A DNA stretch of 64,000 bases from Myxococcota bacterium. GTDB taxonomy: Bacteria > Myxococcota_A > UBA9042. Made by a program: the position numbers and the translations under genes. Numbering within the stretch: position 1 is the stretch's first letter; each line of letters begins with the position of its first letter. Location: positions 71,180 through 135,179 of the forward strand of contig CAXNCS010000003.1 of NCBI GenBank assembly GCA_964201005.1. Direction: 5' to 3'. Shown here piece by piece: positions 12,701 through 50,163 of this stretch. The notes below the pieces were generated by a model that was not told the DNA's origin, did no database searches, and saw only the letters and a program-made list of their open reading frames with translations.

Positions 12701-13138
12701 GCGCTTGGCGTTGTCGGTGTCGTTGTTGGCGAGCACCAGGTTCAGCGACTTCGCTCCCGCCGACTTAGGCGTATAGCGCACGATGATCTTGGCTTTTCCG
12801 CCCTTGTCGAGGCTCAGGGCCTTCCAATCGACGACCTGGAACTCTTCGGTCTCCGGGGCAAAAATCGCCGAGTCCACCTTGAGGGTCCCAGAAGTACCCG
12901 CGTGCGAAATGGTCAGCTCGCGATCGCTGCTCTGGCCCACTGGCAGATCGGTAAACAGCAATTGGGCCGGCGACACGCCGATGCGGATGTCGTCCTCAAT
13001 GCAGAATCCGCCGGAGCAGGTCTGGGTATTGCCGTTGCCCGCGCTGCCCGTGCCGGAGTCGGCGGTGTCCGAGCAATGGGCCAGCGGCAGCGCAAGCAGC
13101 GCCGTCAGAATCGCAGCGATGTGGGGTTGGCGCACCAT
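9770..13138 (-). CDS. 1122-aa lipoprotein: ~8 Ig-like beta-sandwich repeats followed by a C-terminal von Willebrand A (vWA) domain
   Basis: ORF 9770-13693, with the start moved to ATG 13138 (GGAGGA 6 nt upstream; MVRQPHIAAILTALLALPLAH/CSD is a lipoprotein signal). Repeats include PVEFGNIAAGATPVKELTLLNTGTLDLLLTSVQL, KVNLGAIELGQEVKADIKVCNVGFAELKV and LDFGVVSVGCKSPGKEVSVFNTGTTEAYI. The vWA MIDAS motif is VDVLFIVDNSGSMSEEQ, with later VVTTD and VVVLSDEEDGS. Confidence 0.85.
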   Translation of the reverse strand: MVRQPHIAAILTALLALPLAHCSDTADSGTGSAGNGNTQTCSGGFCIEDDIRIGVSPAQLLFTDLPVGQSSDRELTISHAGTSGTLKVDSAIFAPETEEFQVVDWKALSLDKGGKAKIIVRYTPKSAGAKSLNLVLANNDTDNAKRQFKVPVKVAAAAAQLTVNPNPVEFGNIAAGATPVKELTLLNTGTLDLLLTSVQLAKNESPDFVIEALPDLTKAIPPGNSAKMSVKYSPKGGDSDLSHLLFESSDGRKYQVEVQGNEIAPRISVVPPKVNLGAIELGQEVKADIKVCNVGFAELKVAKMEVSPVSLIKDVKLSVAAPLNIAAPKQAGLCETGVTMVLTLKADKAVPKNGSPVASIVFSSNDPVNPTLTLPIFAETNSPKLLVTPDDYVDFSLVGKGVKVTRKIELFNEGSAPLDVTKLAITDEKDKLGEFSILPGTFGPSAANPQPETLAPGQYAVFQVQFEAKGPPDMKAQANLHIYSTDPGTPDKVLPMYAERKEGVVCNVQLVPPILNFGLLPYGATKTIPIGFKNTGSGMCVFKSVNVLACGGNGLPPPLGPGPMKCKQSGSPQFYAAAPSTALFKLAPGDTGKMLVTFTAPDDLGFLLGKPNEVTPFGALLVASFEDSSTGQVKTFPNVALTDPAKVAATAPNLEAKVGKAQVSVLPGQLDFGVVSVGCKSPGKEVSVFNTGTTEAYINKLELQGCGLEVQPLGWPGIPKTGYPISQAKPATFKVQYGPQNVGKDQCQLLVWTNLSGTCMKNDGTQTGKDCSVNGDCGAGEFCGGQLFTVPINGEGTLETEFTDEFVQGVGKQVDVLFIVDNSGSMSEEQDNLAKNFGTFTQIADLWQNNYHIGVVTTDMDDAKQSGKLIEKSGVRVVTPKTVNGPQILLSMVKQGTNGSGDEQGLSAAEAALTLPNVYDSGKKCAADADCKSDGGFCVPDAEDPATKKCGGTNRTFVRKGAGLEVVVLSDEEDGSAADINYYTNFLFSIKGFANKGLFHLHAIVGDAGNGCKGSGGDAVAGDRYLAVAKATGGKIGSICSTSFAQVLKDIGNVAFGLAQQFFLTRTPEESTIVVKVKGQVCAKGNFQYDAASNSVIFPQGSPCMPAKGDTVSIYYKMLCFP

Positions 13139-13281
13139 CGTCGTCCTCCAATTAGGGCAGCGCTGGGCGATCCAGCGGTCCGGAGATTCCGCGCGGCATT
13201 GCGCAGAGGTCGACCGGACAGGGGCTATGTCATCGCACTGCACAGGCGCGCAGGGCACGGGACCGCGACCGGCCCCTTGGC

Positions 13282-18165: not shown

Positions 18166-18189
18166 GGCTGGGATTCTCCTGTGCAAGGG

Positions 18190-21100: not shown

Positions 21101-21759
21101 GACAGCACTTTGTCGCCCAGCGCCTTGCCCTGCTGCATGCACGCCTTGCCCACGCGGTACAGAATCTCTGAGAGGCGCGGGTAGTTGGGGTACTGCTGCA
21201 ACACCTTCTCGTAATACGAGATCGACTGCTGATAATTCTCCACTGGCTGTACCGGCTTCTCTTTGAGGATGCCTTTCTCAAACTGCTCCATCTTGCGGTC
21301 GTAGTCCGAGCGCTCGAGCAGATAGAGGAACTTGGTCTCTTCCCACCACGCCTCCGCCATGCGGAAGTAGTAGTCGGGGGCGTTGGGATCGCGCGGATTG
21401 CGCGCCAGCAGATCTTCCAGCGTCTTGATCGTCCGCACGCGAATCTTGGACTTTTCCTGCTGCAGCGCCCGCTCTTTGGGGGTAAAGCCCAGCTGGTCGA
21501 GCCGATCGGCGGTGAAGGAGCCTTTCTGCAGGGCATCCTCATCGCGCTTGGGCTTGGCCACTTCGACTTTCTTCTCTTCCTCCACCAGCGAGGTCTTCTT
21601 TTCGACCTTCTTGGTGGCGGCGCCGGCCTCGACGTCTTCTTCCTGGGCCCAAGCGGCCGCGCCACCGGCGACGACGCCCAAAGTGGTGACGAGGGCTACC
21701 AAGCGTCGCCACGGGCGCGAGGCTCCCGAGACGCTGCGCTGCAAGCTGGATTCACGCAT
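18190..21759 (-). CDS. 1189-aa secreted all-TPR protein (size and position of GltD/AgmU-NfsD-type proteins)
   Basis: Signal peptide MRESSLQRSVSGASRPWRRLVALVTTLGVVAGGAAAWA/QEE, then a charged K/E linker, then TPR-like helical repeats throughout (e.g. YALYKLGWVYYNLREFQRTIETFQAVV; YYAELLYDQLKDFNRARVAYERVIELDP; LYNKAMLYIDQKDDKVAIDTFERVVKEFP). Its stop lies 24 nt before the next gene's start. Confidence 0.85.
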   Translation of the reverse strand: MRESSLQRSVSGASRPWRRLVALVTTLGVVAGGAAAWAQEEDVEAGAATKKVEKKTSLVEEEKKVEVAKPKRDEDALQKGSFTADRLDQLGFTPKERALQQEKSKIRVRTIKTLEDLLARNPRDPNAPDYYFRMAEAWWEETKFLYLLERSDYDRKMEQFEKGILKEKPVQPVENYQQSISYYEKVLQQYPNYPRLSEILYRVGKACMQQGKALGDKVLSQKGVQYLNQLIQKFQTSPLIPQAHLALAEHFFEANNLTLAKMNYEKITQNFKNAAMYNYALYKLGWVYYNLREFQRTIETFQAVVKEISKEGDKGKIEFRDQALKDLVQAYAELDGAWPKAKEYFISVEGEAKAWERMYKLGEIYVSIDKDKDAVDLHTHFIESKPTDPRCVEWHEQIVDIYKKLGAFPDIEAAMRKFLAFTDDRTSPWLSAMKQRKDAKSEEARDKAQRNGENYLLYISNYYHQLAQKTDDETKDSAKSLPYYNKAADDYKEFIRRYPDSKKAYIVNFYYAELLYDQLKDFNRARVAYERVIELDPSGEYVEDAALGVIYATENLMRNTKACYNDKKQAWEERADCSPLVDTVEGGGVKVTVVKKDKKADLTEEQIKAAQVPKKRQELHPLEVSYVKAADKYVELMEKAKVDCTGGKKKQCGKGKMVPEIMYLAASAFYDRGQYSEAISGYERVYKYQEDNKVAEIAVRSLIDIYARQKDWVKIEEWARLMLKRKSRIVLETKDLRKYIAVSVAEQAIQLAEKKDYEGAHAKYDTILREFKSEEPELAAIALYNKAMLYIDQKDDKVAIDTFERVVKEFPKSKIAPEAKFQVGMLYEAMTSFREAADAFLDMAKFRDNADAAQALINAGQILAALQDYRGAAAAYDKFIGVANALKGDDENTKRLKGLVADAEMEKGHVYEKMGVEGAKLAAGSYAAVVSKYPARPDLHVEALGRKTEQLRLADAGKNRKDAISAADSAAKAYEKPDGKGGKATFYVAQALFYRTEYDFDDFDVLTLKSVKNMKGLLPMLQKKAEALKKAEGRYFDVVEKASAGGGKAYAAAAAFRIGLLYFKFKEDLFNAPVPPQIVGNAELEDAYKLEIEKLATPIEEQSVTALKSAINIAHNLGVYNKWSKEAGDYAYKVNPDAYPTVEKDPNLPKAAATVSANESSDPATSAAFVTSVRRGKFTVSYKPKADAK

Positions 21760-21857: not shown

Positions 21858-23783
21858 TCAGTTGCCGACCGCGGGGGCCGAACTGGTCTTGCACTTGGAC
21901 TTGAGGAACGAGCGGTAGGCGCCGATCTCGTCTTTCCAGAATTCACCTTCAAACGGCCACTGCATGGCGTCCGAGCCGGCGATCGCCACCGGGCCTTCCT
22001 TGGCCACCGCCTCGCCTTCAGCCGCCGACTTGCCGGCCTGCTCGTCTTCGATCGCCTGCAGGCGGATTTCGTCGAGGTCGAGGCGCAGCTGGGCGAGCTT
22101 ATCCTGATAGGTATCCAGGTCTTTGGCCGCCTGACGCAAGGTCTGCTGGATGACCACACCGGCCTCAGAAATGCGCTCCGTCTTGCGCTGGCCGAGCTTG
22201 GCGAGCATCTCCTGACCAAAGGCGCCGAGCTGCTGCAGGTTGGCCTTGACCACCCGCTCCTCTTTCTCGATCTGCTTGATCGTGTTGTAAAGGTTGTAGA
22301 ATTCGACATTCATCAGCACGGGCGACTGCAGCTGCCGCGGCAATCCGCCGCCCTGCTTGGGCTTGTTCACCGTGGCCAAGAAGGCGTTGTAGAACTCTTC
22401 CGGCTTGCGCGAGCGCTTGAGGAAGTCGCGCAGCGGCGGGGCGAGGACGATCACCCGCTCCTCAAACATCTTCATGGCCTCTTCCGCCTCCGCCGACAGG
22501 CACAGGTTGACGTACGCCGTCGCCTCCAAGATCCACAGCTCCGGGTAGAAGTGGTGGGCAAAGTAGGGGCTGTGCAAGGCGTGAAAGGTACCCAGGGCCC
22601 GCGAGGTGTCGCCTTTGAGGAAGTAGGTCCAGCCGCTCTCATAGAACGCGGTCGCCAGCTTGGGCGAGTTCTTGCTGATCTTCTTGTAGTAGTAGATCGC
22701 CGCGTCGTACTGCTGAATATCGTACGCCAAACGCGCTAGAGCCAGATAGGCCAGATCGACCACCGGCCGGCCATCCGCTTGGGTCTCCGCGGCGAGCACG
22801 GCTTTCTGGAACGCCTCGGCGGCGGCCTTGACTTGGGCACCGGCGAGGCGATCTTCGGCGTTGTCCGGAATCTCCATCAGGCCAAGCAGATACTGGGCGC
22901 GACCATAGTCCAGGCCCTTGTCCGATACCTTCTCCAGGTAGGGGCGCGCGGCATCTTTGACGCCAAAGTCGTTGAGCGCTTCGCCTACAAAGTAGTAGAA
23001 GCCGTCTTGAAACCCCGCGTCAAAGGTATTGACCGACAGCTTGGTCAGTTCTTCAAGCTCCGGCGGGCGATAGATGATCTGCTTGCGCAGGTCGCGCAGC
23101 TGTTGGAACGCGGTGGTAAAGAACATCTTGTCTGAGCCGGCGCGCACCACGTCAAGCAGCGTATCCGCAGCCGACTGAATCAGCCCCGCGCGGGCCAAGG
23201 CGTTGGCGATGCCGTACTTGGCGACGTAGGCCTCGTTGCTGTCCGGAGCGAATGGGATGCCGCCAACGCCGTCTTCGACGAACTTGGTGAACACCTGCAC
23301 GGCTTTGACGAACTCGCCAGAGTTGGCGTAGTCCTGGCCCTGCTTGAGGATCTTGCCGGCAAAGGCCTTGCGCTGGCCCTCTTCGCGGCGCTTCTGCTCT
23401 TCCGCCAACCGCACCGACTCTTCGCGCAGCCGGGCCTCTTCGGCGGCCATCTCGGCGGCGGTCAGCACTTTTTCGGCGGGCTTGTCCACCGGCTTGTCCG
23501 CCGGCTTGGGCGCGGTGCCGGCGCCAGTCGACAGCATGAAGCGGATGAGCTTGTCCGTCGCGCCGCGGCGCTTGAGCTCCATGATCTCCTTGGGCGCCAG
23601 GGCAAACTTGCTGCCGTCCTTGGTGATCTTCTTGATGATCTGATCGTCGGTCGCTTCAGCTTCCAACAGGGCATACACCTGGTCCAGGCTGATGGCCCAA
23701 GCGGGAACGGCCTGACTCGCGGAGACGAGCAGGGCAGCGGCCATGGCCCAAGAGCCCAAGCGGCGGCGGTGGTGAAGGTGCAT
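21858..23783 (-). CDS. 641-aa secreted TPR / coiled-coil protein
   Basis: GGAGGAACC precedes ATG 23783. Signal peptide MHLHHRRRLGSWAMAAALLVSASQAVPAWA/IS. A small N-terminal helical module is followed by a P/A/K linker, TPR-like repeats (RAQYLLGLMEIPDN.., YLALARLAYDIQQYDAAIYYYKKI) and a C-terminal coiled coil (LDTYQDKLAQLRLDLDEIRLQAIEDEQ). Confidence 0.8.
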   Translation of the reverse strand: MHLHHRRRLGSWAMAAALLVSASQAVPAWAISLDQVYALLEAEATDDQIIKKITKDGSKFALAPKEIMELKRRGATDKLIRFMLSTGAGTAPKPADKPVDKPAEKVLTAAEMAAEEARLREESVRLAEEQKRREEGQRKAFAGKILKQGQDYANSGEFVKAVQVFTKFVEDGVGGIPFAPDSNEAYVAKYGIANALARAGLIQSAADTLLDVVRAGSDKMFFTTAFQQLRDLRKQIIYRPPELEELTKLSVNTFDAGFQDGFYYFVGEALNDFGVKDAARPYLEKVSDKGLDYGRAQYLLGLMEIPDNAEDRLAGAQVKAAAEAFQKAVLAAETQADGRPVVDLAYLALARLAYDIQQYDAAIYYYKKISKNSPKLATAFYESGWTYFLKGDTSRALGTFHALHSPYFAHHFYPELWILEATAYVNLCLSAEAEEAMKMFEERVIVLAPPLRDFLKRSRKPEEFYNAFLATVNKPKQGGGLPRQLQSPVLMNVEFYNLYNTIKQIEKEERVVKANLQQLGAFGQEMLAKLGQRKTERISEAGVVIQQTLRQAAKDLDTYQDKLAQLRLDLDEIRLQAIEDEQAGKSAAEGEAVAKEGPVAIAGSDAMQWPFEGEFWKDEIGAYRSFLKSKCKTSSAPAVGN

Positions 23784-23890: not shown

Positions 23891-24856
23891 CTATTCCGCC
23901 GGGGCGGTGAACCAGGTCAGCGAAACGGTGACAGAAACCGGCTTGGACAAACCGGCTGAGGCGTCGTTCTTCACGTCGTCAAAGGCCGGGTAGTAGAGCT
24001 GCTGGATGTTGGCGCGCAGGGCCCAGCGCTCGGCGATGTAGAACTGCAGGTAGGTGCCCACTGAGCCAGCGGCATCAAAGCGGTACGCTGGTTCGATTAC
24101 GCCTTTCTTGGTCACACGGGTGTAAACGCCGCCGATGCCAAAGCTCAGCGCTGCGTCAAACTCGTTGAGGCCCGTGCCAAAAAAGCTGAACTTACCGTGC
24201 ATCAAGTTCCAGTCGACGCCCGCCGTCGTGTAGGCCTGCAGCGTCTGCGGCAACCGCACGTTCAGCTCAAAGCCGTCGGGGCGCTTCGACTGCAGCTTGT
24301 CGCGCAAGGATGTCGGCTGATCGTAGGTGTAGGCACCCTGGACGTGCAGCGCAAGGTCTTCAGAGAAATAGTAATTGTAGCCCACGCCGCCGGTGATGTA
24401 GGTCCAGAAGTCGTCGTTGGGCACCACGCCGCCCAAGAAGGAGACGCTGTGGCGGCCTTCCTTGATGACCGCGCGCTTCTGGATCACTTTGATGTCGCGG
24501 CGCTTGGCCCACTCCATCCGCGCTCCAGGGGGCACCGCGTCGTCGCCGACACCGTAGATGTCTTGGTCGCCGGTTTCGCCCATGAGGTCAGGGGCTTTGC
24601 CTTTGTCCCCGCCCTTGTCCGCTGCCGGCTTTGGCTCGGCTTTTGGCGTTTCAGCTGCGGGGTCCTTGGCGGCGTCGGCGACTGGCGCTTCGGCCGGGGC
24701 TGTTGGATCCGCTGGCTTTTCCGCCGGGGTCTCTTGGGCCAGGGCCGGTACGGCGGCCAGGGCAGTCGCGCCCAACCACGCCGCCAGGCTCAGGCGCCCA
24801 ACCAGTGCGGATCGCCAAGAGCGCCGGGACAGGGGAGAAAGGAAGAAACTGCGCAT
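23891..24856 (-). CDS. Outer-membrane beta-barrel-type protein (321 aa) with a Pro/Ala/Lys-rich N-terminal linker; paralog of 25026-25769
   Basis: ORF 23891-24958, with the start moved to ATG 24856 (MRSFFLSPLSRRSWRSALVGRLSLAAWLGATALAAVPALA/QE). After the linker, amphipathic beta-strand patterning is shared with the neighbouring gene: FLGGVVPNDDFWTYITGGVGYNYYFSEDLALHVQ, NLMHGKFSFFG..FDAALSFGIGGVY, GTYLQFYIAERWALRANIQQLYYP. Confidence 0.7.
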   Translation of the reverse strand: MRSFFLSPLSRRSWRSALVGRLSLAAWLGATALAAVPALAQETPAEKPADPTAPAEAPVADAAKDPAAETPKAEPKPAADKGGDKGKAPDLMGETGDQDIYGVGDDAVPPGARMEWAKRRDIKVIQKRAVIKEGRHSVSFLGGVVPNDDFWTYITGGVGYNYYFSEDLALHVQGAYTYDQPTSLRDKLQSKRPDGFELNVRLPQTLQAYTTAGVDWNLMHGKFSFFGTGLNEFDAALSFGIGGVYTRVTKKGVIEPAYRFDAAGSVGTYLQFYIAERWALRANIQQLYYPAFDDVKNDASAGLSKPVSVTVSLTWFTAPAE

Positions 24857-25025
24857 TTCGAACCTCAGCAGCCGCGGCGGGCCGCCCTCTTGGCAGGGAC
24901 CTTGGGGAGCTGCGGCCGACCTCTGCAGGTGAGTCGCGGCGCTTTGGGGTCCCGTCAACCGCTCGTCTCGCGCCGGTAGGGCGGCTTGCGGCGGCGCATG
25001 GTGAAGTCGCCCGGAGGGCGGATTT

Positions 25026-25769
25026 CTACTTGCTCAAGTAGGCAAGACCGAGGGTGAACTCGGCCGGAGCCAGGAACGAGATATTGTCCTGCGGCTTGTA
25101 CAGGTACTGGCTGTATCCGAGCTGGACGTTGAGAAACCGCGACAGATAGAAGCGGAAGCCAATGCCCCAGTGCCCGCCGACCTTGATGGCATTGACGGGC
25201 TCCTTGTTGCCGCGCGACTCGTCAACGTCGACGTTGATCACGCCCACGCCGCCCGAGAAGTTCACGTCAAAGCTGGTCAGCTTCTTGTCAAAGATGCCCC
25301 ACTTGCCGTGAAAGGGCGTGTAGACCAGGTCCAGCGCGCTCGTCCAGTTCATCTTGGGCGCGGCCTGGGCGCCCCGGGTCAGGACGTTGCAGCTGCCGCC
25401 GCTCGCTGGCACGCACTTGAGGAAGGTGAGGATGTTGGAATCCTCGGCCATGAGGTACTGGAAGCCGCCCTGCAAGGCCAGGGTGTCCGCCAGGTAGTAC
25501 GCCACCCGACCGCCCGCCGTGTAGAACAGGTAAAAGTTGTCGTTGGGGATGGTGCCGAGCTGCACCGAGCCTTCAAAGCCGCCCTTGCGCTCGTAGAGCG
25601 GGTTGGTCAGCGACGGCACGGCCTGGTCGACGTTCCAATACTTGCCCAGCTCGCGATCGATCGGCTCGGCAGATTCTGCCGCCATGGCGGAACTCGCCAG
25701 CGCCCAGGCAGAAACCGTGATCAGGGCTGTCGCGATGGTGCGGCGCAGCGCCCGGTGCATCCAATTCAT
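25026..25769 (-). CDS. Outer-membrane beta-barrel-type protein (247 aa); paralog of 23891-24856
   Basis: GGGAGGAACAGAGG precedes ATG 25769. Signal peptide MNWMHRALRRTIATALITVSAWALASSAMA/AE. Alternating beta-strand patterning: VQLGTIPNDNFYLFYTAGGRVAYYLADTLALQG, YTPFHGKWGIFDKKLTSFDVNFSGGVGVINV, HWGIGFRFYLSRFLNVQLGYSQYLYKP, EFTLGLAYL. Confidence 0.7.
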   Translation of the reverse strand: MNWMHRALRRTIATALITVSAWALASSAMAAESAEPIDRELGKYWNVDQAVPSLTNPLYERKGGFEGSVQLGTIPNDNFYLFYTAGGRVAYYLADTLALQGGFQYLMAEDSNILTFLKCVPASGGSCNVLTRGAQAAPKMNWTSALDLVYTPFHGKWGIFDKKLTSFDVNFSGGVGVINVDVDESRGNKEPVNAIKVGGHWGIGFRFYLSRFLNVQLGYSQYLYKPQDNISFLAPAEFTLGLAYLSK

Positions 25770-25938: not shown

Positions 25939-27930
25939 TCAGCCCTTGCAGACGCCGTCGCACTTGCCGTCGGCTTTGCACGTCCCGCCGCAGCACTTGC
26001 CCTTGCCGTCCGCGCCACAGGGCAGCAGATCCGGCGACGGGTCCGCCACGCACTCGCCCGCGGGGCTGCAGTGGTTGGCTCCGCAGGGATCGCTGCCGCC
26101 GCAGTCGGCGTCGCTGGCGCAGGACAAGTGGAAGATCATGCGGCGATCGCGTGAACCGTCCTGGGTGAACTGCCACTCTTTCTCGTTCTTGAACACTTCT
26201 TTGAGGCTGCTAAACACCGTGGACTGCATGGTCATTTTGCCGCGCATGGCGGTGACGGCGCCCTTCTTGACCGAATCGTCTTTGAAGCGATTGTCCATAA
26301 AGCCAACGCGCCAGTTGCCGGCCAGGGTGTAGCGCACCATGGCGATCGAGCGGCTCATGGCGTCTTGGAACGGGGTCGGGTCCTTGTTGTTCATGTCCAA
26401 GGTGTTGATGAACTGATAGGTGCCTTCCGTGCGGCAAGCGAGGTCCTGCAGAAACGCGTCCGGCTGCGGGTGGGTCTTGGACTGCACTTGGACGACGTGG
26501 AGGCGCACCGGGAACTTGTCGTCGTGCATGACCTGCAGCAACGCCTTGTAATCGGTGGTGATCATTGCGCACTGCTTGCGGCAGTCGCCGCCCTTGCCAA
26601 CCTTGGGATCGACAAATTGGTACAGGTCCGAATAGGTGCAGCTGTCCGGGCCGTCGGTCAGAAGAACGATGTGCCGAGGCGCGCCCGCTCCCAGGTCTTT
26701 GTCGCGCAGGAAGGTGTACGCCGTGTTCAGGGCCTCATACACCGGCGATCGCCCCGTGGCGGCCTCGCGGATGCGCTCTTCCAGACCCAGGCGGTTCTGC
26801 GCCTTGACCTTGTCGGAGCTGCCAAAGCACTTCACCATCTGCTCAGGCTGAGAAAGATTGGCAAAAGAGTCATTGGCAAAGGACGGATCGGCGGCGCACT
26901 GATAGTTGCCCTTGTTGCCGTCCGGGTCGACCAGATCTTTGCAGTCCGCGTTGCTGATGCAGGACTTGGTCGTGACCTCGTTGACGGTGCCGTCGGTGTA
27001 CTGGCAGCGCAGGTCGTCGGTGCACGCCACGCGCACGCCGTCGTTGCTCTCGTCGTAGTACATCGTCAGCACGCGATCGCGGGGATTGAGCGTATCGATG
27101 AGCTGTTGGGCGCCAGCGACGAGCACGCTGTAGCGGTCCGACGAGCACTCCGGGAATGAATCGGGCGTCCACTTGCCGGGCATATCCTCAATGAACTTGC
27201 TGGCCGTGGTGCAGTCGCCGGTGTCGGTGTAGACAAAGCCGTCTGTCGATCCGCTGTGGTCCACGAGGATCGCGACGTTCTGGAAAGTTTCCTTGCGATC
27301 GGGGTCGCACCGATCCGGGGCAACCGCCTTGTATTTAAGGGCCTTGCCCGTACCGCCGGAGCCTTCAGCCGAAGTGCTGCACGTCGCCGGATCTTGGATC
27401 CCAGCGCGCGGCTCATAGCAGCCCAAGTCGAGCTCAAAGTTCGCGGGCGAGATCGTCTGAAGCGCCGGATCGGTGGTGACCGGCTGCTGCTCGATGCGAT
27501 CGCCATCGCGAATGCCCAGATCGACGTCGCCCTCGCACTTGGGGCTCGTGACCTTGAGCTCGGTCGACACGAGGTTGACCGTCAGCTCGACGCCGTTCGC
27601 TTCCAGTACCGGTTCTCCGTCAGCCAGTGGCGCGCCGCAAACCCGGGTCACCGTCTTCGTCTGGGCGTTGACGAACGCCGGAAAGGCCGAGACGACTTGG
27701 ACTTTGTCGAAGATCAAGTTGTCCAGGCCAAAACGCGCGGTCGAGTCGCAGCTCGACAGGCCGCCGGTGATCAACCAAGCGGTGCCAAGGAGCGCGCTCG
27801 CGATCGTCGCCGGGACCCCAAGGCGTCCGCGCGGCTGTCGCGGTGCGGAATCTTGGCCTTGATCTGGGCGGCGCTTAGGGAATTGGGCCTGCGCGTTGGA
27901 ATCGACCTGCGGCTGGGACTGGATGGGCAT
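25939..27930 (-). CDS. 663-aa lipoprotein with a vWA domain and a Cys-rich C-terminal module
   Basis: GAGAGG lies upstream of ATG 27930. Lipobox LITGGLSS/CDS after a charged N-region. The vWA MIDAS-type motif is NVAILVDHSGSTDG, with later RHIVLLTDGPDSC. About 40 Cys overall. The C-terminus reads CASDADCGGSDPCGANHCSPAGECVADPSPDLLPCGADGKGKCCGGTCKADGKCDGVCKG. Confidence 0.85.
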   Translation of the reverse strand: MPIQSQPQVDSNAQAQFPKRRPDQGQDSAPRQPRGRLGVPATIASALLGTAWLITGGLSSCDSTARFGLDNLIFDKVQVVSAFPAFVNAQTKTVTRVCGAPLADGEPVLEANGVELTVNLVSTELKVTSPKCEGDVDLGIRDGDRIEQQPVTTDPALQTISPANFELDLGCYEPRAGIQDPATCSTSAEGSGGTGKALKYKAVAPDRCDPDRKETFQNVAILVDHSGSTDGFVYTDTGDCTTASKFIEDMPGKWTPDSFPECSSDRYSVLVAGAQQLIDTLNPRDRVLTMYYDESNDGVRVACTDDLRCQYTDGTVNEVTTKSCISNADCKDLVDPDGNKGNYQCAADPSFANDSFANLSQPEQMVKCFGSSDKVKAQNRLGLEERIREAATGRSPVYEALNTAYTFLRDKDLGAGAPRHIVLLTDGPDSCTYSDLYQFVDPKVGKGGDCRKQCAMITTDYKALLQVMHDDKFPVRLHVVQVQSKTHPQPDAFLQDLACRTEGTYQFINTLDMNNKDPTPFQDAMSRSIAMVRYTLAGNWRVGFMDNRFKDDSVKKGAVTAMRGKMTMQSTVFSSLKEVFKNEKEWQFTQDGSRDRRMIFHLSCASDADCGGSDPCGANHCSPAGECVADPSPDLLPCGADGKGKCCGGTCKADGKCDGVCKG

Positions 27931-28386: not shown

Positions 28387-30789
28387 ATGACGTCCTCTCT
28401 CTCCCTGCGGACCTCCACCCCGGTTCGATTTCGGGATGTGCTTGCTGGATCGGCGACGACGCTGCGGGCGACGCTGCTCGTGGGCGCTTCGCTGGTTGCA
28501 GCAGCGTGCAGCGACCCTGCGACCGGCACGAACACCGGCACGGGGGCCTCTGCGTGCCTCAACGGCGTGACCGCGGACTGCCGGCCGATCGCCGACATCA
28601 AGTCCGAGACGGCCAACATTGGCCAGGTCAATTCGGAGCAAAGCAAGCTCAGCGGCAACCTGGTCCTGGACGTCGGCGGCGTGGCCCTCAAGGAAAAGTC
28701 GTACCGCACGGTGACCTTGAGCAACTCGGGGAACGTCATTCTTCCGGCTGGTTACAAGATCCGCTCGGTCAGGATGCAGTACGACGCGCAAAATCCGGAA
28801 GAGACCGACATCAAGGCGTTGGAGTGCTGGGACGTATCCGAGACCGTGCCGTGCGACAAGCTCGACAAGGTTTGGAAGACCGTGGCGCCCAAGGGCTACA
28901 CCATCAAGGACGCCGACAAGAGCTGGATGACTTCCGGTGAGTCGTTCGTCATCAAGTACACGGCATTCGACAACAAGGTGCGCACCGGAACTGTGCTGGT
29001 CGAGCTCCAGGGGATCTCCGCGCAGGTGCTGACCTTCTCGATCAACATCAGCACCAAGGCCGGTTCGCCCAAGGCCAATCTCCTTCCGCCGTCGGTCAAC
29101 TACCCCTACGTCAAGCCCAAAGAGTGCGCTACCGAAGTGGTCAAGATGGCCAACACCGGCGACGCCGTGCTCAACATCAGCCAGATCAACCTCTCGGGCG
29201 TCGACAAGTCCTTCCAGATGCGCCTGGTCAAGCCGGAAGACCTCGATACCGAGTGGCACGAAGGCGGGGCGATGTGGACTCTGCCGGCGCCGCTGTCGAT
29301 CAAGCCGTCGAACAGCGCCGACTTTGAGGTCAAGTTCTGCCCGGCCGACGACAAGAAGAAGCAGGGCCAGATCAAGTTCATCGGCAACGACTCTTCGGCT
29401 CCCTCGCTCACGGTGCAGGCCAACAGCTCGGTCCCTTGCATCCAGGTGCTGCCGCCGACGATGAATTTTGGCGGCGCTATCCCGGGTTCTGAGAGCCCGA
29501 TGGATCTGACCATCAAGAATTGCGGCTCTCAGGAGCTGGTGGTGACGGACTTTGTGCTGACCGAGGACACCCAAGACGCCAACCAAGAGTTCTTTATCGA
29601 CCAAACCCCGCTCGCGGCGACCGGCAAAGTCAAAGCGCCGCCGCCGATTTCGGTTGAAAATCCGCTGGTTTTGGGGATCAATGAGCTTGCTGTGGTGACG
29701 GTGAAGTACGCGCCGGCCGACATCTCCAAGGAGAATACCCCCGACACCGGCGAGATTACCGTGGTGTCGAGCGCGTATATCCAGCCCAAGGTGAAGTTGT
29801 CGGGTATCGGCGTCGAGCAGACCTGCCCCATCGCCAAGGTCAAGGTGGCTGAGGGCGAAGAGGTGGTGCCGCAGACCAACTTGCACCTCAACGGCTCTAG
29901 CTCGCTGGCCCCCGGCGGCGGCACCATCAAGAAGTACAAGTGGACGGTCAAGCAGCCGACGGGCTCGAACCAGCCGTTGCTGCCAAGCGCGACTTTTCCC
30001 AACCCCACCTTGCAGGCCAACACGGCGGGCGAGTACGAGTTCTGCCTAGAGGTGTGGGACCAGAACGACGTCAAGTCGTGCGTGCCCGCGTGCACCACCG
30101 TGCTGGTGATCCCCAACAATGCGATCCACGTGGAATTGCTCTGGGATACGCCTTCCGACCCCGACCAGACCGACACGGGCCCGGCCGCTGGCGCCGACCT
30201 CGACCTGCACTTTGCCCATCCGCTGGCTGCGGCCCTCGACATCGACTGCGACAAGTCGGGCGATCCTTGGTTCAGCAACCCCTGGGACGCGTTCTGGTTC
30301 AACCCCAATCCGGCCTGGGGCGCGGCGCCGATCAGCGACGATCCCAGCCTGGACTTGGACGACACGGACGGTGCGGGCCCAGAAAACCTGAACATCGAAG
30401 AGTCGGAAGGCTCGCTGGAAGACCCGGTCTCGTACTCGGTGGGCGTGCACTACTGGAACGACCACGGCTACGGCACCTCCTATGGCACGGTGTCGATCTA
30501 CTTGCAGGGCGGCCTGGCGCTGCAGTTCACCAAGGTCAAGTTGGACCCGCTGGACATGTGGTACGTGGGCAAGCTGAACTGGCCCAACACCATGAGCGGT
30601 GGCCCCAAGAAGCCGTTTGACACCTGCTACCAGACCGGTGCGCCCTTGGTGGCGGACGGCGGCAAGTGCGCATCTGGCCAGAGCGCGATGTGGCAGCCCA
30701 AGGGCGAGTGGTGCGTGACCAAGTGCTATGAAGACAAAGCGTTTGTCCAGTCCGTCGGTGGCGCGGCGGCGGCTTCCTGCAAGAAGTGA
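28387..30789 (+). CDS. Ig-repeat lipoprotein, paralog 2 (conserved C-terminal 'DLDLH / DDTDG.GPEN / VGVHYW' domain plus an extra Cys-containing tail)
   Basis: ORF 28288-30789, with the start moved to ATG 28387 (AGGAG upstream; ..LLVGASLVAAA/CSD lipobox). It has Ig-like repeats (MNFGGAIPGSESPMDLTIKNCGSQELVV) and a PKD-like segment (KKYKWTVKQPTGS..ANTAGEYEFCLEVWD). The C-terminal domain reads IHVELLWDTPSDPDQTDTGPAAGADLDLHFAHP..SGDPWF..DDPSLDLDDTDGAGPENLN..YSVGVHYWNDHGYG..VSIYLQG..DMWYVGKLNWP. Confidence 0.85.
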   Translation: MTSSLSLRTSTPVRFRDVLAGSATTLRATLLVGASLVAAACSDPATGTNTGTGASACLNGVTADCRPIADIKSETANIGQVNSEQSKLSGNLVLDVGGVALKEKSYRTVTLSNSGNVILPAGYKIRSVRMQYDAQNPEETDIKALECWDVSETVPCDKLDKVWKTVAPKGYTIKDADKSWMTSGESFVIKYTAFDNKVRTGTVLVELQGISAQVLTFSINISTKAGSPKANLLPPSVNYPYVKPKECATEVVKMANTGDAVLNISQINLSGVDKSFQMRLVKPEDLDTEWHEGGAMWTLPAPLSIKPSNSADFEVKFCPADDKKKQGQIKFIGNDSSAPSLTVQANSSVPCIQVLPPTMNFGGAIPGSESPMDLTIKNCGSQELVVTDFVLTEDTQDANQEFFIDQTPLAATGKVKAPPPISVENPLVLGINELAVVTVKYAPADISKENTPDTGEITVVSSAYIQPKVKLSGIGVEQTCPIAKVKVAEGEEVVPQTNLHLNGSSSLAPGGGTIKKYKWTVKQPTGSNQPLLPSATFPNPTLQANTAGEYEFCLEVWDQNDVKSCVPACTTVLVIPNNAIHVELLWDTPSDPDQTDTGPAAGADLDLHFAHPLAAALDIDCDKSGDPWFSNPWDAFWFNPNPAWGAAPISDDPSLDLDDTDGAGPENLNIEESEGSLEDPVSYSVGVHYWNDHGYGTSYGTVSIYLQGGLALQFTKVKLDPLDMWYVGKLNWPNTMSGGPKKPFDTCYQTGAPLVADGGKCASGQSAMWQPKGEWCVTKCYEDKAFVQSVGGAAAASCKK

Positions 30790-30981: not shown

Positions 30982-33342
30982 ATGAGCGACAGCCTCTTTC
31001 AGCCGCGCCCCGCCCTCAAGGGTCGGAAAGCGTCGGGTTTGACAGGTTTTTTGCGGATTGCCGCCGCAGTAACCCTGTGGGCGGGCCTCAGCAGCTGCAG
31101 CGACGGGACGGACAACGGCGGCGCAGACGCGGCCACCAGCGCCGACGGCAGCAAGGTCAAGTGCAGCTTTGACAACGCCCAGGTCGGCATCGATCGTTCG
31201 GCGCAGTTTGCGGTCAATCTGTATGGCGGCGCGGCGGTCGATGAGGCCAAGCCGATCGCCATCAACAGCGGCACCATTGCGGTGGGGGCGACGGCCGATA
31301 TCTCGCTGGAAATCAAGAATACCGCCAACCTGGCCAGTGCCGCCGAACTGCTGGTGAGCAAGATCAACGTCGTCTACAGCGGCGACGACGGGGCCTTTGA
31401 CTGCCTCGTAGCCGACAAGGACGGCAAGGCGTTGATGGCCGACGGAAAGACGGTGGCGTGCAGCGGATACGATTTTGGCTCGATTGTCCCCGCGGGCTTT
31501 GACCCGGCGTGCGTGAGCAAGGCAGCGAGCACTGCTGGGCGATTCCTCATTCGCTTCAAGAAGATCGACAGCACCGCCCGCTCGGCCAAGGTGGTGGTCG
31601 TGGCCAGCGGCGATACCAGCCGGACCACGGTGACGCTGCAATTGGAGGCCAAGGCCGGCAAGGCCACCATCAATGTGAGTCCAGATCCGCTAGATTTTGG
31701 CGTGGTTGGCGTGGACGGCCCGGGCAAGGCCCAGCAGCTGAACGTGACCAACATCGGCGATGCCGACCTGGAGCTGAGCGGGGTGCAATGGAGCGTGAGC
31801 GACGCCTCATTCACCATGGAAATCGGCGGCCAAACGGTCAAGGGCAATGCCGACGGCAAATTTGCCCCGCCCCTGGTCGTGCCCGCCAAGAAGTCGCTGG
31901 CGGCGAGCATCACTTTTGATCCCGTGGACGACAAAGGCCGCGAGACCACCGTGACCTTCCTGCACAGCGCCACAAGCGGCAAGGCCAGTGCGCTGCTCAA
32001 AGGCAACCTGGAAGTGCCGTGCGTGCTCGTCAAGCCCGAGAAGAAGCTCGACCTGGGCATCGTTTACGTGGGCCAGACGGCGACCAAGAATGTGGTGCTG
32101 GAGAATTGCGGGACGGTCGAAGTTGAGGTGTCTGGCCTGAGCCTCAGCGAGGATGAGCAAAGCGTTTTTGGCTTTGGCGGCAACTTGATCGCGCCGACGC
32201 CGACCTCGCCCATCAAGATCGCCAAGAACGGTAAGGCGACCGTGCCGGTGACCTGCGCGCCGCCGAGTGAGAACAAGACGCCGCAGGGCGAGCAGAAGCC
32301 CTTTACCGCCAAGCTGAACCTCAGCGACAATACGACAAAGCCCAATAAAGTGGTGGATGTGCAGTGCTATGGCACCGCGGCGACGTGCCCAACGGCGGTG
32401 ATTGTGCCGGACCCGGGCGAGCAGATCGAGCCGCAGCAGAAGCTCTGCCTCAAGGGCTCCAGCTCGTTTGCCGCACCGGGAAAGCAGGTCAAAAAGTACA
32501 AGTGGAAGCTGCTGAGCGCGCCCAAGGGTGCGACAGCCCTCAAGTTTGCCCCCAATGATGTGTCGGCGGATGTCTGCTTTGGCACGGACACCGTCAATCC
32601 CAAGACCGGTGCGACCGAGCTGAGCGTGAATATCGCCGGCGAATACGTATTTGAGTTGCAGGTTTGGGATGATGTGGGGACGGAGTCGTGCAAAGTGAGC
32701 CAGATGCCGGTGTTGGTGATCCCGAGCATGGGGCTGCACATCGAGCTGCTGTGGGATACCCCGGCGGATGAGGAAAAGGACACGGGGCCCACCGCCGACG
32801 GCAGCGACCTGGACTTGCACCTGGTGCACCCCATGGCGTACGACGCAAAAACCTGTGACGCGACCACGACAAAGGCGTGTCAGCCGGATCTGGACAAGGA
32901 CGGCAAGACCGACCCGTGGTTCAATTCGGTGTACGACTGCTACTGGTACAACAACACCAATCAGTGGGGCAGCACGTCGTCGGCGGATAATCCAGGGCTC
33001 GACTTGGACGATACCAACGGCTGGGGCCCAGAGAACATGAACATGCAGGCGCCAGAAGACGGCCTAAAGTACGGCGTGGGTGTGCATTATTGGGACAAGC
33101 ACGGCCTTGCTCCGGACGACACCACCGCCACGGTCAACATTTACGTCCTCGGCATGCTCAAGGGGACATTCACCCAGATGATGCACGAATGCGACATGTG
33201 GTGGGTCAAGCAGGTTGCGTGGCCCACTGGCGATCTCCTTGATTTTGGCGGAGCGAGCACCACGGCGACGGGCAAGGTGACCCCCAAATACTGGAGCATT
33301 CTGGGCAGCACACTGGGTGGCGTCTGCAGCAAGCCCAAATAG
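30982..33342 (+). CDS. Ig-repeat lipoprotein, paralog 3 (same C-terminal domain)
   Basis: GAGGA precedes ATG 30982. Lipobox TLWAGLSS/CSDG. Ig-like repeats (LDFGVVGVDGPGKAQQLNVTNIGDADLEL; LDLGIVYVGQTATKNVVLENCGTVEVEV) and a PKD-like segment (KKYKWKLLSAPKG..NIAGEYVFELQVWD). The C-terminal domain reads LHIELLWDTPADEEKDTGP..GSDLDLHLVHP..DLDKDGKTDPWF..DNPGLDLDDTNGWGPENMN..YGVGVHYWDKHG..VNIYVLG..CDMWWVKQVAWP. Confidence 0.85.
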   Translation: MSDSLFQPRPALKGRKASGLTGFLRIAAAVTLWAGLSSCSDGTDNGGADAATSADGSKVKCSFDNAQVGIDRSAQFAVNLYGGAAVDEAKPIAINSGTIAVGATADISLEIKNTANLASAAELLVSKINVVYSGDDGAFDCLVADKDGKALMADGKTVACSGYDFGSIVPAGFDPACVSKAASTAGRFLIRFKKIDSTARSAKVVVVASGDTSRTTVTLQLEAKAGKATINVSPDPLDFGVVGVDGPGKAQQLNVTNIGDADLELSGVQWSVSDASFTMEIGGQTVKGNADGKFAPPLVVPAKKSLAASITFDPVDDKGRETTVTFLHSATSGKASALLKGNLEVPCVLVKPEKKLDLGIVYVGQTATKNVVLENCGTVEVEVSGLSLSEDEQSVFGFGGNLIAPTPTSPIKIAKNGKATVPVTCAPPSENKTPQGEQKPFTAKLNLSDNTTKPNKVVDVQCYGTAATCPTAVIVPDPGEQIEPQQKLCLKGSSSFAAPGKQVKKYKWKLLSAPKGATALKFAPNDVSADVCFGTDTVNPKTGATELSVNIAGEYVFELQVWDDVGTESCKVSQMPVLVIPSMGLHIELLWDTPADEEKDTGPTADGSDLDLHLVHPMAYDAKTCDATTTKACQPDLDKDGKTDPWFNSVYDCYWYNNTNQWGSTSSADNPGLDLDDTNGWGPENMNMQAPEDGLKYGVGVHYWDKHGLAPDDTTATVNIYVLGMLKGTFTQMMHECDMWWVKQVAWPTGDLLDFGGASTTATGKVTPKYWSILGSTLGGVCSKPK

Positions 33343-33351: not shown

Positions 33352-35574
33352 ATGGCCAAGAAGATCGTTCGGCGCGGCGGTTGGGGCAGGGCGGTCGGCG
33401 GTCTGGCCGTCGCGGCGCTCTTAGCAGGCCTTCTGGGCTGTGGAGAGGAGGCCGAAAATCCTTCCGGAGCCTGTAGCGCAAGCACAAGCATCGATAGGTC
33501 GGCGGCGCTGGCGGTCCGGGACAGTGCGGGCTCAGCGGCAGTTGGGCAATACGACTTTGATGTCTCGGCCCTGGGTGTTGGGGCGGTCAAGGAGTTTAGC
33601 TTTCAGATCGCCAATACTGCAGCCGCGGTGGCGGCGCTTCCGCTCCGGGTCAAGTCTGCGCAAATACAGGAATTTGACAACGCCGGGCAGCCCATCGCCG
33701 CCAGCCAGTTTGCCTGCGTCGGGCCTGGGGACAAACCCTGTGACCAAGCGAAGTGGCCCGAGGTGGTTCCGGCCGGCTTCGATCCCGCGTGTGCGGAGGC
33801 CGGAGCTGTCAATTCAGCCGCCTTTAAGGTGCGCTATTCCCGGCCGGCGGCACCAGCCGTGCGCTCGGCTCAATTGACTTTGGTCTTTGAGGGTGACGTC
33901 AAACAAGGGGCGACTCCGGTGGTCCTCAAGTTCGGCGCCCGGCTCGGCTCGCCAAAACTCAGCTGTAATCCGCCTGGTTACGATTTTGGCAAGGTCAACT
34001 TGGCCGATGCCGCGTCCACGACCGTGGTTTGTGCCAACACCGGCAAGGCTGAAGCGGTGATCACCCAGGCCAAAATGCTGGGCTCCCTTCCTCTGCTCGC
34101 AAAACTCGGCGGCCACGTGGTGCAAGCGGCTGCCGCGCTCCCGGAAGGTACCCAGGTTGTGGTGCCCGCCGGTTCGACCCTGCCGATCAATGTCTGGTTT
34201 GAGAAACTGCCCAATGAGCAAAAAATGGAGGCCATCCTGCGGCTCGGCACCAATGACCCGACCAAACCGCAGGTGGACCTGAGCTTTACGGTGAATGCGA
34301 CCGGGCCGTGTCTTTCGGCAACGCCTGCGAGCCTGGATTTTGGCGAGCAGCCGCCGGGGGTCCAGGTCAAGAAAGAGGTGCAGATCAAGTCGTGCGGCAC
34401 AGAGGATCTGAAGATCAGTTCGGTTGTCATCGGTGGCGCCGCCGAGCAGGGCTTTGGCGTCTCGCTGGCGACCACTTGCTTTGACGGCAAGGCGCCGACC
34501 GCGGACGCGCCATTGCTCATCCCCAAGGGCGAATCGTGCTCATTATTCGTCACCTACACCGCGCCTCAGCTGGGGGCCGTCAGTGTGGGCTCCTTGGAGA
34601 TCGACAGCTCAGCGGGCAAGAAGAGCGTGGCACTTCAAGGCGCTGGGGCTGCAAGTGTGGCGTGCCCCAAGGCCTGTATGTCTCTGCAGATCAAGGGGGG
34701 CGGGCCGATCAAAGGCGCGGTGGTGCCGCAGACGGAGGTGCAGCTCGACGCCAGCTGCTCGACGCCGGCCAATCAGCCAATCGCCAAGTGGAAGTGGAGT
34801 GTTCAGCAGCCCGCAGGAAGCTACTCCGTACTTGCGCCTTCGGATGCGGCCAAGGCCCCGACATTTCAGCCTAATATTGCAGGAAAGTACACATTTTCGC
34901 TCGAGATCGCCGACGAAATCGGCACCCCCGGCTGTGCGGCTGCGAACTACGAGCTGATGGTCATTCCGGACGACAAATTGCACGTCGAACTGACATGGGA
35001 CACTGCGGCCGACGGCAACAAGACCGATGTGGGCGACAAGGATGGCAAGCTAACCGATGGTAAATACGCCGGATCAGACATGGATCTGCACCTCGCGCAT
35101 CCGGACGCCCTGGACCAGCCCGGACAGGCCGATCTCGACAAGGATGGCTCGCCGGAACCGTGGAACGCCACCTGTTACGATTGTTTTGTGCTCAACACCC
35201 TGCCGCAATGGGGCGATCTGAGCGACTACGACGACGACGCCACCCTGGATCGCGACGACAAGGACGGCTGGGGGCCAGAGAACATCAATCTTTTCTTGCC
35301 GGAACCGGCAGTTCAGTACTTTGTAGGCGTCTATTACTGGTCGGCGAACGGCTTTGGCAAGTCGACACCCACGGTGCGGATCTACTTGGACGGGCAGTCT
35401 TCGCCGTTTGTGGTCAAGACCGGGCCGCTGATGGCGCAAGGCGAGCTTTGGTGTGCCGGCCGGGTGAGCTGGAAGCCGAGCGCGGTGATTCCTTGCAAGA
35501 ATGCAGATGCACAAGGAAATTTGCTGCACAAGGCCGTGCCGCTGCCGTCGCCCGCTGCCCTGAAGTGCAAGTAG
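33352..35574 (+). CDS. Ig-repeat lipoprotein, paralog 4 (same C-terminal domain)
   Basis: ATG 33352 lies 9 nt after the previous stop, with AGGA upstream. Lipobox LLAGLLG/CGEE. Ig-like repeats (YDFGKVNLADAASTTVVCANTGKAEAVI; LDFGEQPPGVQVKKEVQIKSCGTEDLKI) and a PKD-like segment (AKWKWSVQQPAGS..PNIAGKYTFSLEIAD). The C-terminal domain reads LHVELTWDTAADGNKTD..GSDMDLHLAHP..DLDKDGSPEPW..DDDATLDRDDKDGWGPENIN..YFVGVYYWSANGFG..VRIYLDG..GELWCAGRVSWKP. Confidence 0.85.
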   Translation: MAKKIVRRGGWGRAVGGLAVAALLAGLLGCGEEAENPSGACSASTSIDRSAALAVRDSAGSAAVGQYDFDVSALGVGAVKEFSFQIANTAAAVAALPLRVKSAQIQEFDNAGQPIAASQFACVGPGDKPCDQAKWPEVVPAGFDPACAEAGAVNSAAFKVRYSRPAAPAVRSAQLTLVFEGDVKQGATPVVLKFGARLGSPKLSCNPPGYDFGKVNLADAASTTVVCANTGKAEAVITQAKMLGSLPLLAKLGGHVVQAAAALPEGTQVVVPAGSTLPINVWFEKLPNEQKMEAILRLGTNDPTKPQVDLSFTVNATGPCLSATPASLDFGEQPPGVQVKKEVQIKSCGTEDLKISSVVIGGAAEQGFGVSLATTCFDGKAPTADAPLLIPKGESCSLFVTYTAPQLGAVSVGSLEIDSSAGKKSVALQGAGAASVACPKACMSLQIKGGGPIKGAVVPQTEVQLDASCSTPANQPIAKWKWSVQQPAGSYSVLAPSDAAKAPTFQPNIAGKYTFSLEIADEIGTPGCAAANYELMVIPDDKLHVELTWDTAADGNKTDVGDKDGKLTDGKYAGSDMDLHLAHPDALDQPGQADLDKDGSPEPWNATCYDCFVLNTLPQWGDLSDYDDDATLDRDDKDGWGPENINLFLPEPAVQYFVGVYYWSANGFGKSTPTVRIYLDGQSSPFVVKTGPLMAQGELWCAGRVSWKPSAVIPCKNADAQGNLLHKAVPLPSPAALKCK

Positions 35575-40156: not shown

Positions 40157-40357
40157 CCGAGGCGCTTGCCAAAATGGCACACCATGGCCCCGCAGCCGGC
40201 GCAAGCTGTGCCTCTGCGTCTGCGCGGGCCGGAGCTGCTCCGGGAACAATCGACCGGGGCAACGGGGTTTGCGAAGGGCACGCGGTTGGCACGGCCCGTG
40301 CATCCTCGCATAGAGACGGCGGGACTTCTGCAAACGCGCCGCCGCGGAGTTTCTAGG

Positions 40358-50160: not shown

Positions 50161-50163
50161 CCC

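Follow-up and report, generated by a model that had tools for sequence, protein, structure and literature searches.

What kind of domain closes the four long, paralogous lipoproteins encoded in one stretch of a Myxococcota genome, and what could it do there? The stretch in question comprises 64,000 nucleotides (Myxococcota bacterium, assembly GCA_964201005.1, contig CAXNCS010000003.1, positions 71,180 to 135,179 of the forward strand; "the window" below). A preliminary description, made from the letters of the window alone, had noticed the same ordered set of motifs at the C-termini of four proteins, which are called A, B, C and D here. The analysis reported below places this terminal domain as a distant relative of the C-terminal half of Escherichia coli YfaP and suggests, with a probability of roughly one half, that envelope lipoproteins bear it as a binding head stabilised by calcium.

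Four lipoproteins with one terminal domain

When the four C-terminal regions are aligned with MAFFT, 61 columns are invariant and all of the motifs appear in the same order, so that the conservation seen at first is kept in a proper alignment. A hidden Markov model (HMM) of the family finds exactly four copies of the domain in the window and no fifth, each within about 30 nucleotides of the place given in the preliminary description (Table 1); because the E values are 3e-52 to 4e-78, the similarity of the four copies is not due to chance. The domain is about 180 residues long and very acidic, with Asp and Glu making up 13-16% of the last 190 residues vs 6-8% for Lys and Arg. Across other genomes, 246 homologous domains show conservation of 85% or more at 21 columns of Asp/Glu/Asn and at 25 of His/Trp/Tyr/Gly/Pro, and the signature of these domains reads a.H.ELlW.TP.D.d..D.Gp.aG.DlDLHf.h..A...D.D.DG..D.WF..p.D.fWfn..P.Wg...DdP.Ld.DDtDGaGPEn.nl..Pe....Y..GvHYW.dhg.G.s.atvr.y ... 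D.W.v....Wp.

The proteins that carry the domain share a common layout. A lipobox Cys (AAAC, LSSC, LLGC and WAAC, judged by eye and with a regular expression) is present in four of four within the first 41 residues, with a hydrophobic stretch before it and a Ser/Gly/Thr-rich linker after it. Signal peptide and lipobox mark A to D as bacterial lipoproteins, as had been supposed, with lipidation predicted. Pfam and NCBIfam models recognise several immunoglobulin (Ig)-like domains of the ASH, HYDIN-VesB-CFA65, Cep192 and choice-of-anchor-D kind, and a single K319L-like PKD domain that directly precedes the terminal domain; in gene A, the order is ASH/HYDIN/choice-of-anchor-D domains, PKD, terminal domain and then a Cys-rich tail. 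Pairwise identity among the four proteins is 26-33% over the N-terminal 440 residues or so, 36-47% in the PKD domain and 46-56% in the terminal domain; consequently, A to D are paralogous over their full length and the terminal domain is the best conserved part. Since the lipid anchor is N-terminal, this domain would be the membrane-distal end of each protein.

Known families account for the stalk and not for its end. A search of PDB sequences with the family profiles matched the PKD part, with the PKD of ColH among the nearest solved matches, and returned nothing for the terminal domain. Taken alone, the terminal domain has no relevant match in Pfam or NCBIfam even at E <= 10, and none reaches threshold; no characterised enzyme or carbohydrate-binding family, either of which would have changed the picture, has been matched. 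Two segments that are Ig-like or lie next to a PKD domain weakly match the NCBIfam model NF041425 ("OS_HP2 family (seleno)protein"), namely residues 516-557 of C (E 1e-3) and residues 413-444 of the protein encoded at 9770-13201 (E 9e-7).

Kinship with YfaP, calcium-type loops and the fold

A resemblance to the DUF2135/YfaP type of beta-sandwich had been proposed, and profile comparisons bear it out. In hhalign, the 246 family domains and 61 YfaP C-terminal domains align with a probability of 95.9% and an E value of 5.9e-9 over 87 columns, with the motifs WDT, DLDLH, LD.D.T.G.GPE and Y.V.V.YY in register. The family alignment matches even the single YfaP sequence of E. coli K-12 (E 3.9e-5), whose C-terminal half reads LRLVLSWDTDNTDLDLHVVTPDGEHAWYGNTVLKNSGALDMDVTTGYGPEIFAMPAPIHGRYQVYINYYGG and follows the same motif logic; the controls, in which the YfaP alignment was reversed or column-shuffled, give E values of 0.019-0.85. 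In reciprocal searches run with heuristics off against databases of 246 and 61 sequences, the family HMM and the YfaP HMM each detect all members of the other family (best E 3.8e-10 and 1.8e-11). Furthermore, the Pfam model of DUF2135, PF09906, gives sub-threshold matches in 12 of 116 relatives (best E 0.0037) and is the sole recurrent non-Ig Pfam family among them besides FG-GAP. Taken together, these comparisons of sequence profiles identify the terminal domain as genuinely though distantly homologous to the C-terminal beta-sandwich of YfaP, that is, as a divergent and so far unmodelled branch of the function-unknown YfaP/DUF2135 superfamily.

The four window domains themselves give no match to PF09906 at E <= 10 (gathering score 22 bits), and YfaP, as a positive control, scores 66.4 bits. 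The failure can be traced to the model. Its 48 positions cover only residues 199-244 of YfaP, the strands from Y.V.V.YY onward, and leave out WDT, DLDLH and GYGPE, the most conserved motifs of the full domain. DUF2135/YfaP is widespread and lacks a known function or a solved structure, and its Pfam model represents a quarter of the real domain. The present family shows the full domain clearly, with a textbook calcium loop added and in a distal position on lipoprotein stalks, and there is a case for extending the Pfam model. The YfaP profile found no solved relative among PDB sequences, and a literature search returned no mention of DUF2135 and no function for YfaP.

Family and YfaP have in common L.L.WDT, DLDLH, LD.D.T.G.GPE, Y.V.V.YY and then a further strand, in the same order, and both occur in exported envelope proteins. 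They differ in two inserts of the family, one of about 12 residues after WDT(P) and one of about 30 residues after DLDLH.HP, which contains D.D.DG..DPWF..DCFWFN..P.WG with several invariant Trp and Phe. They differ also in what surrounds the domain, YfaP being represented here by its operon in E. coli and by the domain architecture that it has in Cystobacter: upstream lie ASH and PKD domains in A to D vs a Glucodextran_B-like domain in YfaP, which is a short periplasmic protein, and the neighbouring genes are Glt-like, vWA and tetratricopeptide repeat (TPR) genes vs the alpha-2-macroglobulin operon (yfaS) in which E. coli yfaP (b2225) resides. A to D, lipoproteins of 725-800 residues with other neighbours, therefore do not have the YfaP architecture or operon, and no canonical DUF2135 was found outside the family open reading frames (ORFs) in 82 related loci.

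It had been suggested in addition that the acidic loops are calcium sites of a thrombospondin type-3 or EF-hand-like sort. Of this, the calcium-type character stands and the family names do not. The inserted loop is a canonical DxDxDG with a further acidic residue three positions on in B (DLDKDGKTD), C (DLDKDGSPE) and D (DYDGDGKPD), and a variant with displaced Gly in A (DIDCDKSGD); its DxDxDG columns are 92-96% conserved in the 246 domains, and a weak match to FG-GAP, the integrin calcium loop, falls exactly on the loop of D. Thrombospondin type-3 (PF02412) was rejected, since there is no TSP_3 match in A to D or in the 116 relatives and one loop rather than a repeat array, and an EF-hand assignment was rejected because no model matched; the loop is accurately described as DxDxDG. 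Binding of Ca2+ by the domain is a well-motivated but unproven reading of these conserved residues.

The predicted fold is consistent with a sandwich of this kind. AlphaFold2 models of the A domain with its tail and of the D domain (44 and 116 sequences; pTM 0.89) are confident, with predicted local distance difference test (pLDDT) values as listed in Table 1, and both show the same all-beta sandwich of about eight strands with long loops. Searched against the PDB with Foldseek, the D model has one significant match, 2qng (SAV2460; E 3.5e-4, probability 1.00, TM 0.43/0.47, 20% identity); the A model with the Cys-rich tail has nothing significant, the best being DUF4425 and an alpha-toxin C2-like domain (E about 0.05-0.1), and a search of viral structures gave nothing at E <= 0.001. 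The protein in 2qng belongs to the TerD family (PMC9191617), as is also seen when TerD is compared with the PDB by phmmer (E 1.7e-7), and TerD has been described as a beta-sandwich that binds calcium (Pan et al. 2011, cited in PMC8123226). Several motifs are collinear between the family and TerD: V.L.WD, DLD, an acidic Gly-rich loop (L.RDS.DG.GFG.DE) and VVGV.I. The TerD loop GDNxTGEGDGDDE forms ion sites, and the second acidic loop of the family, LD.DDTDG.GPEN, which YfaP has as well, falls on this acidic Gly-rich loop in an alignment that is collinear but non-significant.

A comparison of the YfaP and TerD profiles is likewise non-significant (E 0.0099-0.47), and there is no TerD (PF02342) Pfam match in the window domains or the 116 relatives. 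A relationship to TerD by sequence was dropped, all profile comparisons being non-significant. Because of this, and because other TerD structures were not retrieved, the TerD-like fold of the models is treated as a lead and not as a result.

Distribution and genomic setting

The family is large. An exhaustive HMMER search returned 2390 clusters at 50% identity (E <= 1e-30), a number that sets a ceiling on the count for the terminal domain alone, because the query profile also held the PKD domain. The domain is present in 134 of the 141 best representatives, the other seven being PKD-repeat giants caught by the PKD part of the query, and it ends the protein in 133 of these 134. Typical lengths are 526-733 residues, and a lipobox-like motif is found in 90 of the 125 complete representatives. 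A size of only 350-400 residues, suggested by another homologue search, was rejected as an artefact, since its matches seem to be cut off at about 1.75 times the length of the query. The named homologues are all "hypothetical protein" from Myxococcales, Myxococcota or Deltaproteobacteria metagenome-assembled genomes (MAGs). Among contigs from one genome per species, a relative is encoded in 361 stretches, and the best 80 of these all derive from MAGs of lakes (Mendota, Erken, Zurich, Baikal and others) and groundwater. The contig JBIKTV010000019 (Myxococcota bacterium, Lake Mendota) is 99% identical to the window.

Many paralogues occur within individual MAGs. About 50 other loci hold single or tandem family members among unrelated, mostly housekeeping neighbours; a Pfam scan of 82 ORFs immediately flanking these scattered paralogues found no family in more than 3 of the 82 and no vWA domain. 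Outside the Glt-like cluster, some genomes hold five family genes in tandem (at 2996-12585 of the related locus concerned, not of the window) or three copies set apart from one another, which indicates a lineage-specific expansion of the family. In eight public MAG records entitled "Klebsiella pneumoniae" or "uncultured Enterobacteriaceae", genes of the family stand in the same Myxococcota-type synteny; the titles of these records look mislabelled.

The C-terminal ends vary in Cys. A, B and C are rich in this residue (18-20 each). The Cys-rich extension of about 60 residues is specific to A-type orthologues and is carried by 22 of the 134 representatives, and in A, B, C and 44 of the 134 one of the last six residues is a Cys, with Lys or Pro after it. 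D has neither the extension nor the terminal Cys.

Table 1. Coordinates within the window of the four lipoprotein genes, their terminal domains and motifs, and neighbouring genes. Boundaries of genes A to D are those of ORFs trimmed to the most plausible start codons.
Feature	Position	Strand	Remarks
Gene A, 800-residue lipoprotein	28387-30789	+	ORF opens 28288; probable start Met 28387; lipobox Cys 28507-28509; PKD ~29869-30072
Domain of A	30118-30660	+	family HMM; AlphaFold2 pLDDT 89.1
A, HVELLWDT	30127-30150	+	
A, DLDLHFAH	30196-30219	+	
A, loop DIDCDKSGDPW	30238-30270	+	
A, acidic loop LDLDDTDGAGPEN	30349-30387	+	
A, YSVGVHYW	30433-30456	+	
A, DMWY	30553-30564	+	
A, Cys-rich C-terminal extension	30661-30786	+	CYQ..C..W.P.G.WC.T.CY...C-K-K; lower-confidence model
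Gene B, 786-residue lipoprotein paralogue	30982-33342	+	lipobox Cys 31096-31098; PKD ~32428-32685
Domain of B	32728-33315	+	family HMM
B, DxDxDG loop DLDKDGKTDPW	32887-32919	+	
B, acidic loop LDLDDTNGWGPEN	32998-33036	+	
Gene C, 740-residue lipoprotein paralogue	33352-35574	+	lipobox Cys 33439-33441; PKD ~34723-34920
Domain of C	34972-35562	+	family HMM; most divergent copy, motifs HVELTWDT, DMDLHLAH, DLDKDGSPEPW, LDRDDKDGWGPEN, YFVGVYYW, ELWC
C, DxDxDG loop DLDKDGSPEPW	35131-35163	+	
C, acidic loop LDRDDKDGWGPEN	35245-35283	+	
Gene D, 725-residue lipoprotein paralogue	13282-15459	-	ORF opens 15537; probable start Met 15459; lipobox Cys 15397-15399; PKD ~13876-14097
Domain of D	13285-13842	-	family HMM; AlphaFold2 pLDDT 91.6
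D, DxDxDG loop DYDGDGKPDPW	13690-13722	-	
D, acidic loop LDRDDTDGAGPEN	13555-13593	-	
Cys-rich lipoprotein with vWA-type MIDAS motif (VAILVDHSGSTDG) and Cys-rich tail	25939-27930	-	divergently adjoins A; syntenic in 22 related loci
Outer-membrane beta-barrel, 247 residues, OMP_myx_plus	25026-25769	-	paralogue of 23891-24958
Outer-membrane beta-barrel, OMP_myx_plus	23891-24958	-	paralogue of 25026-25769
GltC-like TPR protein	21858-23783	-	NF033756 E 6.4e-52; 177 bits vs cutoff 450
1189-residue TPR protein	18190-21759	-	
692-residue TPR protein, weak GltE match	16108-18186	-	64 bits vs cutoff 225
1143-residue protein, at least four choice-of-anchor-D/ASH domains and MIDAS/vWA region	9770-13201	-	downstream of D
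Further choice-of-anchor-D protein	7710-9734	-	
Type II secretion (or type IV pilus-like) set	45419-59932	+	GspD secretin, GspE ATPase, GspF, PilM-like, GspN-like

In the window, A to D all lie within one envelope-protein region of about 28 kb. A-B-C are transcribed divergently from the gene of a lipoprotein with a vWA-type MIDAS motif (for metal ion-dependent adhesion site), for which no Pfam or NCBIfam model reaches threshold, and the minus strand from 27930 to 7710 then encodes, in order, this vWA protein, two barrels, the GltC-like protein, the 1189-residue TPR protein, the GltE-like TPR protein, D, the CglD-like protein and the choice-of-anchor-D protein. The barrels score 72 bits (25026-25769) and 69 bits (23891-24958) against an OMP_myx_plus cutoff of 60 and occupy the position of GltB/GltA or NfsA/NfsB; two barrels are also present in some related loci, and the one at 25026-25769 is missed if only ORFs of at least 250 residues are listed. 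The CglD-like protein is similar to a MIDAS adhesin of Bdellovibrio (E 3.6e-14) and to the gliding lipoprotein CglD (E 2e-10, 39 bits vs a cutoff of 400).

The arrangement of TPR, GltC-like, barrel(s) and vWA genes, and then divergently A, B, C, HU and AsnRS, recurs among related contigs, in about 20-30 loci from different lake MAGs. The minus-strand genes recur in 16-22 loci each and the A-B-C triad in about 28, and A, B and C have separate orthologues, which are 50-99% identical to them. Given the recurrent order and the separate orthologue of each gene, A-B-C represents an old, co-inherited triad. A short family member adjoins a VIT-vWA gene on an unrelated contig. The preliminary description had placed YfaP-type sandwiches at the C-termini of some vWA/VIT proteins; in the 82 related loci no fusion of a vWA domain to the family domain was found, and the link to vWA is one of adjacency only.

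The succession of barrel, barrel, GltC, large TPR and GltE-like protein runs parallel to what Myxococcus xanthus has in gltB-gltA-gltC and in nfsA-E (PMC3169522). In M. xanthus, CglB and CglD are vWA outer-membrane lipoprotein adhesins, CglD having DxDxDG calcium repeats, and CglB is held in the outer-membrane module (bioRxiv 10.1101/2023.10.19.562135). CglD is reported to stabilise the focal adhesion (bioRxiv 10.1101/2023.10.19.562135; PMC9946355). When the window is set beside CglB/CglD and GltA/B/C/K, its genes match the models of CglD, a MIDAS adhesin, GltC, GltE and myxobacterial outer-membrane proteins. CglD, like A to D, joins DxDxDG calcium sites with a lipoprotein anchor; A to D differ in that they lack a vWA domain, and no counterpart of theirs has been reported from the machinery of M. 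xanthus. The cluster is accordingly called Glt/Nfs-like here, in the sense that it appears to resemble the myxobacterial gliding machinery.

What the terminal domain may do

In the proposed model, A to D would each be a lipid-anchored envelope protein built of a lipobox Cys, a flexible linker, about three Ig-like domains, a PKD domain and a terminal acidic sandwich. The sandwich may bind several Ca2+ through some 17 conserved carboxylates, as in the TerD family, and would form the membrane-distal head of the stalk; so stabilised by calcium, the head would bind a partner or a substratum. Because A-B-C and D form part of an outer-membrane cluster that is Glt/Nfs-like, its ligand would most likely be the substratum or matrix (possibly a glycan) or the neighbouring vWA/MIDAS proteins. 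The clostridial collagenases ColG and ColH offer an analogy, in that they too have an Ig-like stalk ending in a calcium-stabilised beta-sandwich, and the PKD before the terminal domain matches that of ColH. The collagen-binding domain of ColG and ColH is calcium-stabilised and binds the substrate. The likeness is one of layout: in neither sequence (Pfam) nor fold (Foldseek) was the collagen-binding (PPC-type) domain matched by the terminal domain.

Several observations count against this model. The lipoproteins may face the periplasm rather than the cell surface. The Glt matches fall below the curated cutoffs except for OMP_myx_plus, with GltC well short (Table 1), and no inner-membrane Glt/Agl or motor genes lie within the window; for both reasons the name Glt/Nfs-like signifies a probable resemblance only. 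The scattered paralogues of the same genomes have no consistent neighbours, so that the domain is not tied to the Glt-like cluster as such. In five hhalign/HMM set-ups, comparison with the TerD, TerE, TerZ, SAV2460 and SCO6318 profiles gave non-significant E values (0.057-0.35), and the structural link to TerD consists of a single Foldseek match of modest TM, with 2kxt (TerD), 3ibz and 2qz7 outside the top 50. Finally, the literature search gave no experiment on the family or on YfaP/DUF2135.

Other explanations differ from the calcium-stabilised head mainly in what the conserved residues are for. They may build a calcium-dependent head like that of a lectin or carbohydrate-binding module, in which Ca2+ and invariant Trp, Phe and Tyr would bind a polysaccharide (slime, exopolysaccharide or prey cell wall) and A to D would be sugar-directed adhesins. 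At least nine aromatic columns beside the acidic loops are 90% or more conserved in the 246 domains, the succession of PKD and C-terminal calcium sandwich would parallel the binding modules of the collagenases, and a gliding-type context favours binding of matrix or substratum; however, no lectin or carbohydrate-binding family is matched by sequence or appears among the top Foldseek PDB matches, and the aromatics may be core residues. Such a head is credible but on balance unlikely. It has also to be considered, as a rather unlikely case, that an acidic loop of the domain completes the MIDAS metal site of the CglB/CglD-like vWA neighbours, in the style of an integrin ligand, so that A to D would be assembly or regulatory subunits. 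The vWA genes directly adjoin A and D, with 22 syntenic loci, the A-B-C triad is conserved as a unit, and the short family member beside a VIT-vWA gene points in the same direction. On the other hand, no fused vWA-domain protein was found in the 82 related loci, and the roughly 50 scattered paralogues lack vWA or recurrent neighbours, although Pfam misses the vWA proteins of the window as well.

A further proposal, that the domain is a TerD-like buffer or sensor of envelope calcium with no specific ligand, draws on the acidic composition and on the TerD-family protein that is the best structural match. It is improbable, given that TerD proteins are cytoplasmic stand-alone domains, whereas here the domain closes a long exported Ig/PKD lipoprotein stalk of a sort typical of binding proteins, and that the TerD link is non-significant by sequence. 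Several invariant His and Glu might instead suggest a metal-dependent enzyme (H4, E6, H31, H34 and H113 of the domain, with conserved Asp), but only the His of DLDLH is common to YfaP, no enzyme family is matched by sequence or fold, and the sandwich has no predicted cleft-forming elements, all of which makes catalysis very improbable. The same degree of doubt applies to a C-terminal export or sorting domain for a secretion system, comparable to the type IX C-terminal domain. The strictly C-terminal position and the type II secretion genes 10 kb downstream (Table 1) would suit this explanation; with 180 residues and conservation at many sites, however, the domain exceeds known sorting tags by far in size and elaboration, secretion genes are not linked to the scattered paralogues, and lipoprotein signal peptides are already present.

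What is new here is a distinct, unmodelled variant of an already known superfamily, which has an inserted calcium loop, differs in architecture and setting, and has undergone a large expansion specific to Myxococcota; nothing found speaks for a system of a categorically new kind. The most interesting leads are the possible TerD connection and the Glt-like context. A conserved triad next to relatives of the focal-adhesion (gliding) outer-membrane module and to vWA adhesins generates hypotheses of calcium binding, adhesion and MIDAS docking. The boldest combination of these would make A to D unrecognised surface components of a Glt/Nfs-type envelope machine in uncultured freshwater Myxococcota, and their calcium-loaded YfaP/TerD-like heads the physiological ligands or the co-adhesins of the CglB/CglD-like vWA/MIDAS neighbours, an integrin-ligand pair encoded side by side. 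This is a long shot. If true, it would for the first time offer a way into the function of the entire DUF2135/YfaP superfamily, the alpha-2-macroglobulin operon of enterobacteria among it, and would connect DUF2135/YfaP evolutionarily with the TerD calcium sandwiches.

Three other genes of the window may be mentioned. An arginine deiminase-like gene (6370-7755, minus strand) stands at the end of the envelope cluster and overlaps the next ORF by 46 nucleotides. At 3196-5277, also on the minus strand, a 693-residue protein with three DsbA/thioredoxin-like domains is encoded, which may bear on the Cys-rich exported proteins nearby. The ORF at 40166-42124 (plus strand) matches both MXAN_2561 (MYXO-CTERM-anchored) and MXAN_2562 (an outer-membrane barrel) and represents a fused gene or else a pair of genes that read as a single ORF.

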